Shown here piece by piece: positions 285 through 7,872 of a stretch of 36,561 bases of DNA (within the stretch, counting starts at the first letter, position 1; each line of letters begins with the position of its first letter). This DNA is from Eubacteriales bacterium (GTDB lineage Bacteria > Bacillota > Clostridia > Oscillospirales > CAG-272). The stretch lies in the NCBI GenBank assembly GCA_045657645.1, contig JAZOTL010000021.1, positions 1 to 36,561 on the forward strand, in the 5' to 3' direction. The notes below the pieces were generated by a model that saw only the letters and a list, made by a program, of their open reading frames with translations, made no database searches and was not told the DNA's origin. The position numbers and the translations under genes are program-made.

Positions 285-1046
285 TTACGTGGTTTTCTTT
301 TTATTAAAAATAGTTTTATAAAAAGCGTTAAGTATGGTGGTTTTAGCTTTGGCGGCCTCATCACCTGTTGCGGCGGGTACGTCCTTTAGGGGATATTCTA
401 TGCCAAGCTTTTCGTACTTATTAACACCAAGGGTGTGATAGGGCAGTACGTCAAGAGCCTTAACGTTAGTAAGCGAGCCTATAAAGCACCCCAGGGCTGT
501 GAGCTGCTTTTGACTGTCTGTAACACCGGGTACAAGCACGTGGCGCACCCAAATGGGCATCTTTTTTGCTTCAAGATATCTTGCAAAATCAAGTATGCCT
601 TCGTTTGGCATACCGGTAAGCTCTTTATGTTCAGCGCTATCAATATGCTTAATATCCAGCATAACAAGATCACATACATCCATAAGCTTATCAAGCTTAT
701 GGGTAAACTCTGTATTTTTAGCGTTATACAAAGCACCCGAGGTATCTATACAGGTATGGATACCCTTTTCTTTTGCAAGGGTAAAAAGCTCTGTTACAAA
801 GTCAATCTGCATGAGGGGTTCTCCCCCTGTAACGGTTATGCCGCCGTTGGAATAAAAGGAACGGTTTTTTTCAAACTGTGCCAAAATTTCCGCAACCGTC
901 ATCTCATTGCCCGTACCGGGCTCCCAGGTATCGGGGTTGTGGCAATACTTACATCTTAAGGGGCAACCCTGCAAAAACACCACAAAACGAATTCCGGGAC
1001 CGTCAACGGTCCCGAAACTTTCTATGGAATGAATATATCCCTTCAT
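285..1046 (-). CDS. pflA: Pyruvate formate-lyase activating enzyme (radical SAM glycyl-radical activase)
   Basis: 253 aa. The N-terminus GTVDGPGIRFVVFLQGCPLRCKYCHNPDTW carries the CX3CX2C radical-SAM motif. Its start lies 1 nt after the stop of the glycyl-radical ORF. Confidence 0.93.
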   Translation of the reverse strand: MKGYIHSIESFGTVDGPGIRFVVFLQGCPLRCKYCHNPDTWEPGTGNEMTVAEILAQFEKNRSFYSNGGITVTGGEPLMQIDFVTELFTLAKEKGIHTCIDTSGALYNAKNTEFTHKLDKLMDVCDLVMLDIKHIDSAEHKELTGMPNEGILDFARYLEAKKMPIWVRHVLVPGVTDSQKQLTALGCFIGSLTNVKALDVLPYHTLGVNKYEKLGIEYPLKDVPAATGDEAAKAKTTILNAFYKTIFNKKKTT

Positions 1047-1047
1047 A

Positions 1048-1290
1048 TTAGATCTGGTCGTGGAAGGTACGGGAAATAACCTCGTCCTGCTGTTCCTTTG
1101 TGAGCTTTATGAAGTTTACTGCGTAACCGCTTACTCTTACGGTAAGCTGGGGATATCTTTCAGGGTGTGCCTGTGCATCAAGGAGAGTTTCCTTGGTGAA
1201 CACATTTACGTTAAGGTGGTGTCCGCCCTTCTGAACGTAACCGTCAAGAAGAGTTACCAGGTTATCTATCTGATTCTGTGTTGCCTTCAT
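1048..1290 (-). CDS. Stand-alone glycyl-radical domain protein (PFL C-terminal module, GrcA/YfiD-like)
   Basis: 80 aa. GGHHLNVNV...[23 protein letters not shown] is the PFL C-terminal glycyl-radical fingerprint. The ATG overlaps the upstream stop (TAATG), and GAGGAGG sits 7 nt upstream. Confidence 0.85.
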
Positions 1291-3398
1291 TATTGTTCCT
1301 CCTCTACGTCAAGGGATTCAAAAAGTGTGGGTGAGAAGCAAGCGCCGTTGCCGCAATCTATATCAACGTCTATATCGCCTGCAAAAATCTTATCCTCTTT
1401 ACCAAGTGCACCGGGGATTACAGAGAAGGTATTGGAAATACCGTCCTGAGCATCGATAAAGGGAAGCTTGGAAACAGAAGCAAGGGATGCAACAGCACCG
1501 TTTGTATCTCTGCGATGCATGGGGTTAGCACCGGGAGCAAATGCCTCGCCTGCCTTACGGCCGTCGGGAGTAGAGCCTGTAGCCTTACCGTATACAACGT
1601 TTGATGTGATTGTAAGGATAGAGGTTGTAGGAATACTGCGGCGGTAGGTGTGATTCTTTCTTACGTGCTCCATAAAGATGTGAACTATATCACGTGCGAT
1701 AGAGTCAACGCGGTCATCGTCGTTACCGTATTTGGGGAAGTCACCCTCTACGGCGTAGTCAACTGCAAGACCCTGTTCATCACGAATAACCTTAACCTTT
1801 GCATACTTGATTGCAGAAAGGGAGTCTGCAACAACGGAAAGACCTGCAATACCTGTAGCAAACCATCTTGTAACGTTCTTATCGTGAAGCGCCATCTGGA
1901 GCTTTTCGTAGCAGTACTTATCGTGCATATAGTGGATAACGTTGAGGGTGTTTACATAAACCTCTGCAAGCCATCTCATCATTGCATCATACTTGCGCAT
2001 TACTTCGTCATAATCGAGGTATTCGCTTGTGATTGCCTGGAATTCAGGACCTACCTGCTTCTTGGTTATCTCGTCCTTACCACCGTTTATAGCGTAAAGC
2101 AAGCACTTTGCAAGGTTTGCTCTTGCGCCGAAGAACTGCATTTCCTTACCAACACGCATAGATGATACACAGCAAGCAATTGCATAGTCATCACCGTGGG
2201 TAAATCTCATAAGGTCATCATTTTCATACTGTATAGAAGAGGTTTCGATAGAAATCTTTGCACAGTATTTCTTGAAGTTTTCAGGAAGATTTACAGACCA
2301 AAGTACTGTAAGGTTAGGCTCGGGTGAGGGGCCAAGGTTGTTAAGAGTGTGCAGGTAACGGTAGGACATCTTTGTTACCATGTGTCTGCCGTCGATTGCA
2401 ACACCGCCGATAGACTCTGTTACCCACTGGGGGTCACCGGAGAAGAGTGCGTTGTACTCGGGAGTACGGGCAAACTTTACAAGACGGAGCTTCATAATGA
2501 AATGGTCGATCATTTCCTGAATTTCGCTCTCGGTGTAAATACCCTTCTTCAAGTCTCTTTCAGCGTATATATCAAGGAAGGTGGAGGTACGTCCAAGGGA
2601 CATTGCAGCACCGTTCTGTTCCTTGATTGCAGCAAGGTAACCAAAGTAGAGCCACTGGATAGCTTCCTTTGTATCTCTTGCGGGCTTGGAAATATCATAG
2701 CCGTAGCTTGCTGCCATTTCCTTTAACTGGCCAAGGGCACGAATCTGCTCTGCCAATTCCTCACGCTCACGGATTATCTCGGAATACATTGCGGAACGGG
2801 TAGTTTCCTTCTGTTCCATCTTATCCTCGATAAGTCTGTCAACACCGTAAAGCGCAACACGGCGGTAGTCACCGATTATACGGCCACGGCCGTAAGCATC
2901 GGGAAGACCTGTGATTATGTGGCTGCTGCGGCAAGCACGCATTTCAGGGGTGTAAACGTCAAATACACCTGCGTTGTGGGTCTTGCGGTGTACGCTGAAG
3001 AACTCCTTCAAGTGGGAATCTATCTCGTAACCGTTATCCTTACAAGCCTTTTCTGCGGTTCTGATACCACCGTAAGGCATAAATGCACGCTTAAAGGGCT
3101 TGTCTGTCTGGAAGCCTACTATCTTTTCCTTATCCTTATCAAGGTAACCGGGGCCGTGAGAAGTAATTGTGGAAATAATATCGGTATCCATATCAAGAAC
3201 ACCGCCTGCCTCAATTTCCTTCTTGGAAAGTTCGCTTACCTGATCCCAAAGAGCAAGTGTATCTTCGGTAGCTTCACAAAGGAAGTCCTCATTACCGTCA
3301 TAGGGTGTAAAATTATGTCTAATAAAACTGCGAACGTGGACATCATTCATCCAAGTTCCTTCTTCAAAGCCTTCCCAGGCTTCAAATGAATACTTCAT
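1290..3398 (-). CDS. pflB: Pyruvate formate-lyase catalytic core lacking the glycyl-radical C-terminal domain
   Basis: 702 aa. It is PflB-like throughout ([22 protein letters not shown]; active-site [11 protein letters not shown]; GANPMHRRD). It ends with a non-homologous 32-aa acidic tail instead of the RVSGYAV region. Confidence 0.9.
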
Positions 3399-3449
3399 AT
3401 ATATATTCTCCTTTCATAGGCATATTATTTATTTTTTTACCAGTACAAT

Positions 3450-3478
3450 AGTATATCACTAATTAATAATATTTTCAA
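3450..3478 (-). promoter_or_regulatory. SigA-type promoter for the pfl operon
   Basis: On the minus strand it reads TTGAAA, a 17-nt spacer, then TATACT, with a TGn extended -10 (gTGaTATACT). It sits about 50 nt upstream of the pflB ATG. Confidence 0.55.
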
Positions 3479-3675
3479 TAGTAATTTACTCCCAAAATAT
3501 TAATATTTTTATAAAAAATTATGTTATTTTTTTAATTGCGACCCCTTTTGAATTGCCTATCCCCTTACTTTTCCATTAATCATCTTTTGAAGCAAAAAAA
3601 CATCATAAAAATACCTGCACGCAATGACAAAGTTATCAGAGGCTTTGGGATAATCTTATTATACAAATTAAAAGG

Positions 3676-6081
3676 ATGGATAAAGAAATGGATAACAAAA
3701 AATCAAAAGACGTATGGTCCCGCAGAGCTTTGGCGGGAATTGAAGGAATAAAGCGAAAGACAAAGACCTTTTTTGAAAGGTATGTTACCGTAGAGGGTAC
3801 TGCCGACGAAATAAAGCAGGAAGCAAAGTACAGGCTTAACTACGCATCCCTTGGTGTGGCCTTGGGGCTTTTGGCCTTCTTTTTAGCCAGGGGTACTTTC
3901 CCCTTTTCGGTTCGCCCCATGGGCGCCGCCCTTATGTGCGCCGCCACCGCTTACACCCCCTTTATATACGTGGGGCTTGTAATAGCATCAATTTTTGAAA
4001 ATAACACCTTAATATACTTTGTTACATATACTGTGGGCTTTGTACTGCGCTTTGCAGGCAGTTATCTTTTTTCAAAAAACAAGCAAGAGCTTTTTTATTA
4101 TGACGGCATAGTTATAAAGGCCCTTTGCGCCACCGTTATGATGTTTGTTTGTGGGGCAGGAAGCTGTGTTGCCGGGGGATTTTTATATTACGACCTTTTC
4201 GGCGCTCTTTTAGGTATTGTGTGCGCCCCCGTGCTTGTTTACCTGTATTCCGGTGTTTTCGATAAGAAGGCCCGCTTTACCGCCCTGCACGATGCAGGCA
4301 CTGCTGCCCTTATGGCATCCCTTGTTTTTGCCCTTAGGGATATGCAGCTTTTCGGCTTTTCCCTTGGGGCGGTGGCGGCATTCGGGCTTTCGCTGTATAT
4401 TTCAAAGGAATGCGGTATGCTGCGGGGAGGCATTATAGGGCTTATTTGCGGCCTTGCATATAATATGCTTTACGCTCCGCTTTTTGCAATCTCCGCTCTG
4501 GTTTCAGGACTTTTCTGGAAAACGGGAACGGTGGCGGCAAGTATTGCGGCGCTGCTGGGCGGTGTGTTTTACGGTGTATATGCAGGGGGCTTTGGCACCC
4601 TGCGCACCCTTGCGCCGGATCTTCTTTGCGCAACTCTCATATTTACCCCTCTTGCAAATATGGAGCTCCTGCCCCTGCCAACACTTTACCGTGGGGGTAC
4701 AAGTGCAGGTATAGCACAAGCCAAGGAAACTGTAGCAAGCCAGAGCCTGCGAGGAACAAACCTTAAGCTTAAAAACATTTCGGATGCAATGACCACCCTT
4801 GCGGGCATATTTCATAAGCTTTCAAACGCAGAAAAGAAGCCGGAGCTTAAACGCACGGCACAGCGTTGCCGGGATTGTTTTTTTGAGCATTGTAACAAAT
4901 GCGCTTCCTACGATATATGCTGGGATGATAAATACCCCGAATCGGAAGCAACGCTTCGGGATATTGCCATAGAGGTTTATGAAGGCGCCCTTGCCACAAA
5001 AGCATCCCTTGCCGCTACCCCCTTTGAGGATTGCCCCTGCATTGACGATATACTAAAGGATATCAACAACGCCTACGCAAAGGAGCTTTCCGAGGCTCTT
5101 GAGGGGAACAAGGCAGAGATTTTTGCCGTAGACTATAACGCTATGTCTGCTTTGTTAAACGAAGCCATAAACGAAAACGCACGGGAGTATGAAATTGACG
5201 AAGCTCTTACCTCAAGACTGAAAAACGCCGCCCGATACCTTAATTTTACCTCCCATACCCTTTGCGTATACGGAAAAAGACGAAAAAAGATAATTGCCTC
5301 CGGGGTGGACCTTGCAAGGGTAAAGCTTGGCGTTGAGGAAATACGCCGCAGCTTTGAAAGGGTTATAGGCGCGCCCCTTACCGGGCCTGCCTTTTCGGTG
5401 GAAGGGGGCAACGTTACAATGAGCCTTGCCGCCTCCCCCCTTTACAAATGCGAGTTCTTTTCCCGAAGCGCCAAAAAGCCGGGAGAGGATATTAACGGCG
5501 ACAGCGTTACACACTTTAAAAATAACGAGGAGTATTTTTACACCGTGTTGAGTGACGGTATGGGAAGCGGCAGAGATGCCGCCCTTGCCAGCCGCCTTAC
5601 AGCCGTTTACCTTGAAAAGATGCTTGCTTGCGGAAATAACAAAAGCCAGACCCTTTCTATGCTGAACTCCTTTATTTCACAAAAAAGCAAGGAGTGCTTC
5701 GCAACGGTAGACCTATTAGAGGTAGACCTGCTGACCGGCAAGGCAAGCTTTATAAAAAGCGGGGCCGCAGCCTCTTACATTCTGCGGGGTTCAAGCCTTT
5801 TCAAGATAGCTTCCCAAACAATGCCCATAGGTATAGTAAGAGAGCTGAACGCAGAAGAGGTGACCTTTGAGCTTTTGGATAACGATATTATAGTTATGGT
5901 AAGTGACGGAGTTTCTGCCTGCTTTGAGGACGGGGTGTGGCTTACAGAGCTGCTCACCGAGGGCTGGCGCCGCAAGGACACCCCCGATGATATATGCCTG
6001 CGCATCCTTGACGCCGCCGCGGAGCACAACGGCAGACGGGACGATATGAGCGTTGCCATGATAAAGGTAAGTAAAACGTAA
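3676..6081 (+). CDS. spoIIE: Stage II sporulation protein E (membrane PP2C phosphatase)
   Basis: 801 aa. About 10 hydrophobic N-terminal segments are followed by a central domain and a C-terminal PP2C domain (GDSVTHF...YFYTVLSDGMGSGRDAALAS...VMVSDGV...RRDDMSV). An alternative start is the ATG at 3688. Confidence 0.9.
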   Translation: MDKEMDNKKSKDVWSRRALAGIEGIKRKTKTFFERYVTVEGTADEIKQEAKYRLNYASLGVALGLLAFFLARGTFPFSVRPMGAALMCAATAYTPFIYVGLVIASIFENNTLIYFVTYTVGFVLRFAGSYLFSKNKQELFYYDGIVIKALCATVMMFVCGAGSCVAGGFLYYDLFGALLGIVCAPVLVYLYSGVFDKKARFTALHDAGTAALMASLVFALRDMQLFGFSLGAVAAFGLSLYISKECGMLRGGIIGLICGLAYNMLYAPLFAISALVSGLFWKTGTVAASIAALLGGVFYGVYAGGFGTLRTLAPDLLCATLIFTPLANMELLPLPTLYRGGTSAGIAQAKETVASQSLRGTNLKLKNISDAMTTLAGIFHKLSNAEKKPELKRTAQRCRDCFFEHCNKCASYDICWDDKYPESEATLRDIAIEVYEGALATKASLAATPFEDCPCIDDILKDINNAYAKELSEALEGNKAEIFAVDYNAMSALLNEAINENAREYEIDEALTSRLKNAARYLNFTSHTLCVYGKRRKKIIASGVDLARVKLGVEEIRRSFERVIGAPLTGPAFSVEGGNVTMSLAASPLYKCEFFSRSAKKPGEDINGDSVTHFKNNEEYFYTVLSDGMGSGRDAALASRLTAVYLEKMLACGNNKSQTLSMLNSFISQKSKECFATVDLLEVDLLTGKASFIKSGAAASYILRGSSLFKIASQTMPIGIVRELNAEEVTFELLDNDIIVMVSDGVSACFEDGVWLTELLTEGWRRKDTPDDICLRILDAAAEHNGRRDDMSVAMIKVSKT

Positions 6082-6159: not shown

Positions 6160-7872
6160 TTATTTACCTAACCAGTTGTTTACGTTACCAAAGTAATCAA
6201 ACGCTCCACCTGCAACGTTGGTATAGTCAAATACCATAAGTCCGCCCAGATTAAAACGATTGATGTACTTACACTTTTCCTCGGTAGAACGCATATCGTC
6301 AAAGGAATAAAGATATCCTGTACTGGGGTTATAAAGGCTTACTGCCTTTACCACGTCATCCCAGTAGGTGTAAAATCCATCCATGGAAGCGGTGGGGTCA
6401 TTGTAATTAATGAGGTGGTAAAGCTCGTTTAAGGTTTTGGGCTGATCGGAATTTGCTCTGCCGGGGCAGTACATACCAACGGTACCGTTACCCTGAACAT
6501 CGCTCCACTGCTGAGAGTAAACGCCTGCGCCTACAAGGAGCTTTGAGCGCTGAAGACCTCTTCTAAGGCACTCCTGAATCTGTGCATCGGTTGAACCGCC
6601 TGTATAAACAGGAGGCAGGTTGGGGTTGGAATAAAGAGCGCACTGATTATAGGTCATATCTCTTTCGGAGTGCATATCGTAGTTCATAAGGTTAAAGTAA
6701 TCTACGTAATGCTGAAGCTCCTCAAGGTTGCTGTAAAGGCTGAACACCCAGGTAGAACCGGGCAGAGCCATAGTTATAAGATAATCCTTGCCTGTCTTTT
6801 CTGCAAGCTTATCAAGCTTTGCACGCAAAGAGGTAAGGTAATATTCAAGATTTGCCTGGGGAATGTTGCCTGTAGGGAACTCATAGTCAAAGTCCACACC
6901 GTCAAAATCATACTTTTCCACCAACGCTACGGTTGCGTTAACAAAGGTATCGCAATTAGAATAGGGGTACATCCACTTTTCTATATCTTCACCACCGTTT
7001 GTAGCAATGGTAAGTACGTATTTAAGGTCGGGGTTAACGTATTTGGATTCGCGGCGAATAACGTTCACCCTTGTCATATAGTTTTCGTTAATGGTCTTCT
7101 TAACACCATCTGCGTGAGCAGGCTGGAAGTTAATTATATCAACCTTCGCAAGGTCGTCTATATTAATGGTGCCTGCCGCGTTACAGTACGCAACTACCTT
7201 CTTTTCATTAGGAGTGGTGATACGGTCTATAGCACCGCTGAAATTGTAGAGGAACATAGCCGCATCAGCTCTTGTTACAAGCTGTGTGGGGTACTGGCGG
7301 TTGTTTTCATCAAGGGGTATAAAACCTACCTTGTATGCGTAATCACAAGCATCCTGTGCCCAAGCAGCAGCCTTTGCATTACCACGGTCCATAGTGCGAA
7401 CCTTTTCGTGTGTAAATTCAAGGAGCATACCGTTTACAGAAGCATAGTTCTTCATCATTACGGCAATCTGCTGTCTTGTAATAACGGTGTTGGGGGAGAA
7501 GTTTCCTCCGCCTGTTCCACTCATTATACCCTTTTCTGCCGCCCAAACAGATGTTGCAGCATACCAATCCTTAGCCTTTACGTCCTTAAAGGTATTCTTA
7601 CCTGCATAAGGGGCAAGGTCATCACCGGAAAAGCTTGCCATAAGGGTAGCAAACTGTGCACGGGTAAGGGTCTTTTCGGGGCTGAATTTATTGCCGCCGG
7701 TTCCCTTCATATATCCCTTTTCTATCGCCCAGTTAACAGCCTCATAGTAGTCCGCATAGGGATCAACGTCTATGAAATCGTCAGCTGAGGCTGCACCTGC
7801 AGAAAATATCATACAGGAAAAAAGTGTTGCGCAGCAAAGCAACAACGCTGTTATTTTTTTGAGATTCATCAT
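6160..7872 (-). CDS. Secreted SLH-domain protein with a GH18 (chitinase-like) catalytic domain
   Basis: 570 aa. It has a signal peptide, then three SLH-like repeats (F.DV...W...A...G...G..G..F.P....TR.Q). The GH18 motif DGVDFDYE (DxxDxDxE) is intact. Confidence 0.8.
   Translation of the reverse strand: MMNLKKITALLLCCATLFSCMIFSAGAASADDFIDVDPYADYYEAVNWAIEKGYMKGTGGNKFSPEKTLTRAQFATLMASFSGDDLAPYAGKNTFKDVKAKDWYAATSVWAAEKGIMSGTGGGNFSPNTVITRQQIAVMMKNYASVNGMLLEFTHEKVRTMDRGNAKAAAWAQDACDYAYKVGFIPLDENNRQYPTQLVTRADAAMFLYNFSGAIDRITTPNEKKVVAYCNAAGTINIDDLAKVDIINFQPAHADGVKKTINENYMTRVNVIRRESKYVNPDLKYVLTIATNGGEDIEKWMYPYSNCDTFVNATVALVEKYDFDGVDFDYEFPTGNIPQANLEYYLTSLRAKLDKLAEKTGKDYLITMALPGSTWVFSLYSNLEELQHYVDYFNLMNYDMHSERDMTYNQCALYSNPNLPPVYTGGSTDAQIQECLRRGLQRSKLLVGAGVYSQQWSDVQGNGTVGMYCPGRANSDQPKTLNELYHLINYNDPTASMDGFYTYWDDVVKAVSLYNPSTGYLYSFDDMRSTEEKCKYINRFNLGGLMVFDYTNVAGGAFDYFGNVNNWLGK

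Follow-up and report, generated by a model that had tools for sequence, protein, structure and literature searches.

The window analysed here is a 36,561-nucleotide (nt) stretch of DNA (positions 1 to 36,561 of contig JAZOTL010000021.1) from the metagenome-assembled genome (MAG) of a Eubacteriales bacterium of the order Oscillospirales (CAG-272; GCA_045657645.1). Close to its start lie three consecutive minus-strand genes: a pflB encoding the body of a pyruvate formate-lyase (PFL) that ends before the glycyl-radical loop, a small open reading frame (ORF) encoding an 80-amino-acid (aa) chain with the radical glycine, and pflA, encoding the activating enzyme (Table 1). Many fermenters of the gut and rumen rely on PFL as their central enzyme for turning pyruvate into formate, and oxygen destroys it irreversibly by cleaving the backbone at the radical glycine. 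For the reasons given below, we consider it very likely that this operon of core, small subunit and activase encodes a functional, obligately two-chain PFL.

Judged by profile and sequence matches, the large ORF is a true PFL. It scored 1092.9 bits against TIGR01255, an NCBIfam equivalog model of 744 positions with a curated cut-off of 994.2 bits, over profile positions 1–664, and 737.6 bits against PF02901; in Pfam it also matched the first half of PF01228 (Gly_radical). Its best sequence matches in the Protein Data Bank (PDB) were 38lb_A and E. coli PFL (1h16). Cys409 and Cys410 lie in the motif IACCVSS and were invariant across an alignment of 61 cores; the E. coli counterparts of these adjacent catalytic cysteines are C418/C419. 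The radical glycine motif RVSGYAV is not on the core polypeptide and is carried by the separate 80-aa ORF.

The small ORF matched the remainder of the same profile (TIGR01255 positions 662–743) and the second half of Gly_radical (PF01228 positions 49–106). In an alignment with E. coli PflB, the core ran up to residue 681 and the small ORF covered residues 683–756. By homology, it comprises the first helix, strand beta-10, the Gly loop RVSGYAV and the C-terminal helix of PFL, with only 8 residues ahead of the PFL-aligned part. The radical glycine is G55 (codon 1128..1126), in the sequence RVSGYAVNF, which was invariant among 25 aligned small subunits. The ORF scored 166.9 bits over model positions 2–78 of NF038360 (cut-off 158), the 78-position NCBIfam model ‘autonomous glycyl radical cofactor GrcA3’, which is of type ‘exception’ and has the short name ‘rad_fix’. 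It fell below the cut-offs for GrcA (TIGR04365; 91.2 versus 170 bits, profile positions 66–125 of 126) and GrcA2 (102.5 versus 145 bits), and aligned to the structured part of YfiD (PDB 6owr, residues 68–125). Public data hold thousands of 80-aa proteins with about 90% identity or more, some of them named GrcA or GrcA3 by NCBI. The third gene scored 308.7 bits against TIGR02493 (cut-off 231.75) and has the CxxxCxxC motif as C28-x3-C32-x2-C35. Of 77 related loci, 61 had a PflA-like ORF no more than 400 nt after the small subunit, in most cases at a distance of about 10 nt or less.

The junction between core and small ORF reads ...gacgtaGAGGAGGaacaaTAATGaag. The core’s TAA (1292..1290) overlaps the small ORF’s ATG (1290..1288) by one base (TAATG), and a GAGGAGG 7 nt before that ATG falls within the codons of the core’s EEE tail. 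In the frame of the small ORF, a TGA (1311..1309) stands seven codons ahead of the ATG, and the TGA-bounded open frame is 86 aa long. Base 1047 alone separates the small-ORF stop from the ATG of pflA. Compared with a fused PFL, the extra material consists of about 30 tail codons and the 8 N-terminal codons of the small ORF, about 110 nt in all. An earlier note on this DNA, made from the letters alone, had described a 702-aa core with a Cys-Cys site and a 32-aa tail, and its coordinates match the ORFs found here. The overlap, the GAGGAGG inside the EEE codons and the upstream TGA were present in the sequence as it claimed. Its view that the small ORF supplies the missing PFL C-terminus with no homologous residues lost agrees with where the two TIGR01255 matches meet (position 664 for the core, 662 for the small ORF) and with the start of the E. 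coli alignment at residue 683. The single base before pflA was likewise borne out, and its insertion of roughly 100 nt carrying a stop, a Shine–Dalgarno (SD) sequence and a start is close to the length measured.

Three kinds of interruption were considered at the junction and rejected. For an intron or other RNA element, no Rfam family matched at E ≤1 within positions 1000–3500. A self-splicing or intein interruption like that of phage T4 nrdD/sunY was set aside because the extra material is so short and both ORFs come with a stop or start of their own, and a split intein on grounds of size (a tail of 32 aa, and 8 residues before the homologous part of the small ORF).

A scan for terminators found none among the three genes. 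The promoter scan returned no more sites than expected from shuffled sequence, so the promoter-like site about 50 nt 5′ of the core ATG is weak evidence. In the 5′ coding part of pflA, positions 990–1019 (minus strand) form a hairpin with a 13-bp stem, AGTTTCGGGACCG-TTGA-CGGTCCCGGAATT; it lies over the conserved GTVDGPGIRF motif and is probably a by-product of the codons there.

Table 1. Features of the split pfl locus (positions in the window)
Feature	Coordinates	Strand	Basis
pflB core, 702-aa PFL body without glycyl-radical loop	3398..1290	minus	ORF including TAA stop
Small ORF, 80-aa glycyl-radical subunit, GrcA3 family	1290..1048	minus	ORF and profile match
pflA, PFL activating enzyme, radical S-adenosylmethionine (SAM) protein, 253 aa	1046..285	minus	TIGR02493
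Codons of catalytic Cys409-Cys410 (IACCVSS)	2169..2174	minus	computed position
Core tail, 32 aa, residues 671–702	1293..1388	minus	conserved motif
SD-like GAGGAGG	1298..1304	minus	direct sequence reading
Promoter-like TTGAAA-17-TATACT with TG extension	3450..3478	minus	consensus scan alone

The split gene was the only PFL gene that we could find in this genome. The whole assembly contained one PF02901 match, the split core, and its other Gly_radical match was NrdD, the sole further glycyl-radical protein. In congeners (93–98% complete), the other glycyl-radical enzymes were distant paralogues that reached at most 373 bits against PF02901 over a partial profile, compared with about 725 for the split PFL. 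Three isolate genomes gave the same picture: in Sellimonas caecigallum JCM 35759, a complete chromosome, and in the cultured isolates Ruminococcus sp. 210702-SL.1.03 and Clostridiales bacterium COT073, the sole TIGR01255 match above the cut-off was the split gene, and the small ORF adjoined the core in all three. A second intact pflB, which the earlier note had raised as a possible bearer of the function, was thus found neither in this assembly nor as a true PFL in the isolates. Five congeners have a convergent second glycyl-radical gene about 0.6 kb past pflA (G004:C33, G005:C27, G006:C14, G007:C64 and G009:C193), a frame of 723–732 aa that scores about 285–325 bits against PF02901 and is not a true PFL. 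The contig of the window ends 284 nt past pflA, short of where such a gene would lie, and no counterpart of this second gene was found elsewhere in the assembly.

The family name and the short name ‘rad_fix’ imply a repair factor, and a pure spare part would be an 80-aa protein that mends an oxygen-damaged complete PFL, as GrcA/YfiD does in E. coli. The homology of the small ORF to GrcA (91 bits against TIGR04365, 102 bits against GrcA2) and its alignment to YfiD fit such a role. However, there was no complete PFL to repair, either in the assembly or in the complete genome of a carrier, and the adjoining core itself ends before strand beta-10 and the Gly loop. The protein also has no YfiD-like N-terminal region of about 60 residues and remains below the GrcA cut-off, and we regard a pure spare part as very improbable. 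Because the small ORF stands behind a core without a radical domain of its own, we take it to be an obligate subunit.

Surveys of other genomes revealed that the split is neither recent nor local. When 40 relatives were scanned for a free-standing ORF over the GrcA3 cut-off, a short one (open frame 82–96 aa) was present in all ten same-genus genomes and in G036, from another family; the other genera of the family had fused PFLs of 746–767 aa. Junctions were read in eight of these relatives in which the junction was intact (seven congeners and G036), and in each the core stopped after a tail of the same pattern and the small ORF followed. In an even sample across the order, 27 of 401 genomes had the split; they represent about nine families and 16 of the 178 genera sampled. 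When each species was represented by a single genome, scanning gave about 600 candidates, and 77 of the best 80 loci were split. Carriers among these 80 included Acutalibacteraceae, Oscillospiraceae, Lachnospiraceae (Blautia, Dorea and Sellimonas), Ruminococcus and Erysipelotrichaceae, as well as Spirochaetota, Melainabacteria and a Slackia MAG; the set also takes in cultured isolates and one complete chromosome, that of S. caecigallum JCM 35759 (NZ_CP173660.1, L047). The conservation of split and tail in relatives, which the earlier note had left to be checked, therefore holds in ten of ten congeners and far beyond.

In a tree built from the homologous part of 80 cores, a sample picked by small-subunit similarity in which split forms are over-represented, all 67 split forms and two fused ones grouped in one clade with a Shimodaira–Hasegawa-like approximate likelihood-ratio test (SH-aLRT) support of 97, and outside it lay eleven fused PFLs of the window’s own family and order. 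Rows from other phyla were scattered within the split clade, indicating that the operon has moved horizontally. The window fell in a clade of 26 rows (SH-aLRT 99) whose tails share C-x3-AC-x2-PTLF-x2-LD. On these comparisons, the arrangement is widespread, horizontally spread and not special to the source organism.

The two nested fused forms, L052 and L088, look like secondary fusions. L052:1365-3722, from a Treponemataceae MAG (JAZRJV010000003.1), encodes a 786-aa fused PFL that retains an in-frame linker of about 45 residues with a Cys pair (...NYGNCMSCDTATIM...), which joins ALGK to the radical domain; the gene resembles a secondary fusion of a split operon or an intermediate form. L088:1500-3728, from a Eubacteriales MAG, encodes a canonical-looking 743-aa fused PFL without an insert and is sister (SH-aLRT 96) to L087, a split form with a third ORF. 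This position points either to parts that fused again and lost the module or to recombination with a fused gene.

The junction does resemble, next to fused PFLs, an insertion with a stop, an SD sequence and a start, and a recent insertion or rearrangement of about 100 nt could have broken pflB and left two decaying remnants. We find such a pseudogene very unlikely, given that the split is common to more than 70 species in one clade and is the sole PFL of cultured isolates. Substitution patterns pointed the same way. Among 37 sequences, the proportion of synonymous differences (pS) was 0.72–0.78, that is, saturated, and that of non-synonymous differences (pN) was 0.055 for the small subunit, 0.109 for the core’s final 115 residues and 0.224 for the tail. 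These values indicate purifying selection on the small chain, the core end and the tail, the tail more loosely (pN 0.22 against a saturated pS of 0.78). A relative with an additional frame break in its core, L018, would suit a decaying gene. In this locus (L018:1379-3500, Clostridia MAG JAZRHH010000023.1), the core frame is broken after 591 aa by a TGA and resumes in another frame (MHTRDTHGAV...CSNGACSSPTLFEGLDTK); the break is either a MAG frameshift error or a truly decayed copy.

The one-base overlap in the window raised a further alternative, that a programmed frameshift or stop read-through yields a single full-length PFL. Five relatives (L027, L035, L038, L069 and L077), in which the two ORFs share a frame with a single stop between them, are also compatible with recoding. 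Across relatives, however, the distance between core and small ORF ranged from −1 to about 400 nt, and all three frame relations occurred, sometimes with an intervening third ORF, so the tight TAATG coupling is a local detail of the window locus. Every small ORF read had its own ATG except that of L007, those inspected had an SD-like sequence as well, and neither an Rfam family nor a frameshift-type element was found at the junction; recoding is accordingly very unlikely. In L007 (G003:C87, a congener, about 1465–1500), the gene is split and the small ORF, without the usual ATG (YRRIRGINYESNSNQIDNLV...), overlaps the core end by 13 nt; either a non-canonical start or a fault in the assembly may explain this. 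That a frameshift or indel error merely feigns the split, as might be suspected of a fragmented MAG of 154 contigs, has a negligible chance of being correct, as the same architecture and tail motif recur in assemblies made independently in many studies and from many hosts, in isolates and in the complete chromosome NZ_CP173660.1, and the 30-plus extra codons are conserved sequence and no indel.

Most of the 32-aa tail of the core has no PFL counterpart. After ...ALGKEDK, it consists of an acidic strand-like stretch, Cys682-x4-Cys687, PTLF-x2-LD and an acidic end, and the motif was conserved both in the genus and in the 26-row clade. We distinguished three classes of tail among split cores: the window type, a Lachnospiraceae type (...FELEPDCACCEPN...) and a short acidic type without cysteine. 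Within the third class, 18 loci have an extra ORF of 57–86 aa between core and small subunit (L045, L053, L060-L062, L065, L067, L068, L071, L075, L079, L082, L086, L087, L089, L090, L093 and L095). The N-terminal 30 or so residues of this extra ORF match NF038360 positions 2–30 and share homology with the first helix and strand of GrcA3 (hhalign probability 96.2%, E 2.5e-9), and its C-terminal part is homologous to core tails, including that of the window (hhalign probability 95.4%, E 1.7e-8). Neither the tail nor the Cys half of the extra ORF matched a Pfam or NCBIfam family. We also considered whether the Cys hairpin of the tail might be a degenerate Gly loop, and dropped the idea when tails compared with the GrcA3 profile gave no similarity (E 0.66).

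The tail is thus a conserved cysteine module and not just a stretch that happens to contain the SD sequence. The module takes the form of a core tail in this genome and of the C-terminal half of a separate mini-protein in other lineages, and the linker of the Treponemataceae fused PFL has, at the corresponding position, a Cys pair whose sequence differs (CMSC). We tentatively propose that this acidic Cys-pair module, C-x(2-5)-(A)C-x-x-P-[TN]-L...D/E-rich, is a third functional part of split PFLs. By analogy with E. coli residues 696–733 in the binding of YfiD, the module could help the radical subunit to dock or keep its place free. Another possibility is a switch, sensitive to redox state or metal, through which exposure to oxygen would lead to the damaged radical chain being released.

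AlphaFold2 was used to model two proteins. The first was a read-through form of the relative L035 (788 aa, 136-row alignment), in which the core’s TAA, read as Q, and one further codon lead into the small subunit; it gave a predicted template-modelling score (pTM) of 0.84 and a mean predicted local distance difference test (pLDDT) score of 79. It superposed on E. coli PFL 2pfl_A with template-modelling (TM) scores of 0.89/0.92 and a root-mean-square deviation of 2.8 Å, suggesting that the two chains together make up a complete PFL fold; its tail (residues 668–708) had a pLDDT of about 30. The second, the window’s core alone, gave a pTM of 0.83, with residues 652–702 and the Cys loop below a pLDDT of 50.

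Experimental structures may already include a relative of this core. Two PDB entries named ‘Formate acetyltransferase’, 38lb (739 residues) and 38la (687 residues), were the top matches of the core, at 1142.9 and 1096.8 bits, respectively. The 38lb chain runs beyond ...ALGK into a Cys-containing tail (GNVMFGECDMCEM...), which differs in sequence from that of the window core, and 38la stops at ALGK. Because 38lb has no match to the small subunit and no radical domain, it appears, from its sequence, to be a natively truncated, tailed PFL core. Both entries are absent from a structure library ending on 8 April 2026 and are therefore recent deposits; a literature search found no publication for either.

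A comparable system is known from E. coli, in which PflB can be completed by GrcA/YfiD, as by phage T4 Y06I: a free-standing, PflA-activated chain with RVSGYAV can complete a PFL body without a loop of its own (PMC13450708; PMC8683613). The small chain described here resembles YfiD in being a separate chain with an RVSGYAV glycine loop that would complete a PFL body. The systems differ in that E. coli has a complete 760-aa PflB and uses YfiD only after oxygen cleavage, whereas no complete PFL was present in our assembly. Moreover, YfiD is 127 aa long with a disordered 60-residue N-terminus needed for activation, whereas GrcA3 is 80 aa long without such a region, and the core here has a Cys-bearing tail that E. 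coli PflB lacks. Andorfer et al. (2021) combined E. coli PFL(1-695) with YfiD(61-127) and obtained wild-type activity once the pair was activated, although it bound and was activated poorly, and residues 696–733 act as a recognition element for YfiD (PMC8683613). The cut in this engineered pair, tPFL/truncYfiD, is nearly identical to the natural one and leaves a body without strand beta-10, Gly loop and C-terminal helix. The natural cut lies near E. coli residue 682, some 15 residues ahead of the engineered one, which gives the small chain the preceding helix as well, and a different, conserved tail stands in place of the E. coli recognition element. Benzylsuccinate synthase (alpha-beta-gamma) and 4-hydroxyphenylacetate decarboxylase likewise have small chains encoded beside the catalytic subunit and the activase. 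In those multi-subunit enzymes, however, the radical glycine is on the large subunit and the small ones are iron–sulfur or regulatory proteins (PMC13450708), whereas here the radical would be on the small chain.

The earlier note had proposed that PFL may operate constitutively in this organism as an enzyme of two subunits, the smaller of which is replaceable, bears the radical and is activated by PflA, and all the comparative evidence, including conservation and the status of the split gene as sole PFL, fits that proposal. In a two-chain PFL of this kind, core and small chain would be made from one transcript, probably in about equal amounts through the TAATG overlap. The 702-aa core has the substrate site and Cys409/Cys410 but ends before the last barrel strand, glycine loop and C-terminal helix, and the small chain would supply exactly these in trans. 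PflA would abstract a hydrogen from Gly55 of the small chain in trans; the small chain would dock, complete the barrel and set the radical beside Cys409/410, and the assembled complex would convert pyruvate and coenzyme A (CoA) to acetyl-CoA and formate. After oxygen cleavage, the 9-kDa chain could be resynthesized and exchanged while the 79-kDa body is kept.

Several points weigh against this interpretation. The assembly is a MAG of 1.54 Mb in 154 contigs, estimated to be about 90% complete, and congeners measure 1.9–2.6 Mb; the completeness estimate may be optimistic, which would weaken claims of absence for this genome, and a second PFL could conceivably lie on sequence missing from the assembly. 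Searches of the literature found no expression, protein or activity data for any split PFL. Poor binding and activation of the engineered E. coli pair implies that efficient function here needs further adaptations, and AlphaFold2 gave the tail no confident position in either model (pLDDT <50).

The locus is one instance of a common arrangement in gut anaerobes that has a curated family name and, it appears, a deposited structure. Full-text literature searches retrieved no paper on a natively split PFL and none attached to NF038360 (GrcA3), and a June 2026 review of glycyl radical enzymes covers only spare parts of the YfiD type (PMC13450708). Databases therefore already know the arrangement, as evidently does at least one laboratory, but the literature searched does not describe it. 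Current annotation treats the core as an ordinary formate acetyltransferase and labels the small chain a repair factor, and automated metabolic reconstructions may therefore mark the core as truncated or overlook that it depends on the small gene. A radical carried on a disposable 9-kDa chain would offer a ready-made system for studying how an activase gains access to the glycine loop and how a radical domain docks into the barrel, and also how anaerobes that live at oxic interfaces keep the cost of damage by oxygen low.

Elsewhere in the window, the plus strand encodes SpoIIE (3676–6081) and a Mn-catalase-family protein (PF05067; 12025–12621) that is possibly a spore-coat CotJC-like protein, and the minus strand encodes a GH18 chitinase-like protein with SLH domains (6160–7872). 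These neighbours suggest that the source organism is a spore-forming member of the Clostridia with some oxygen-related equipment.

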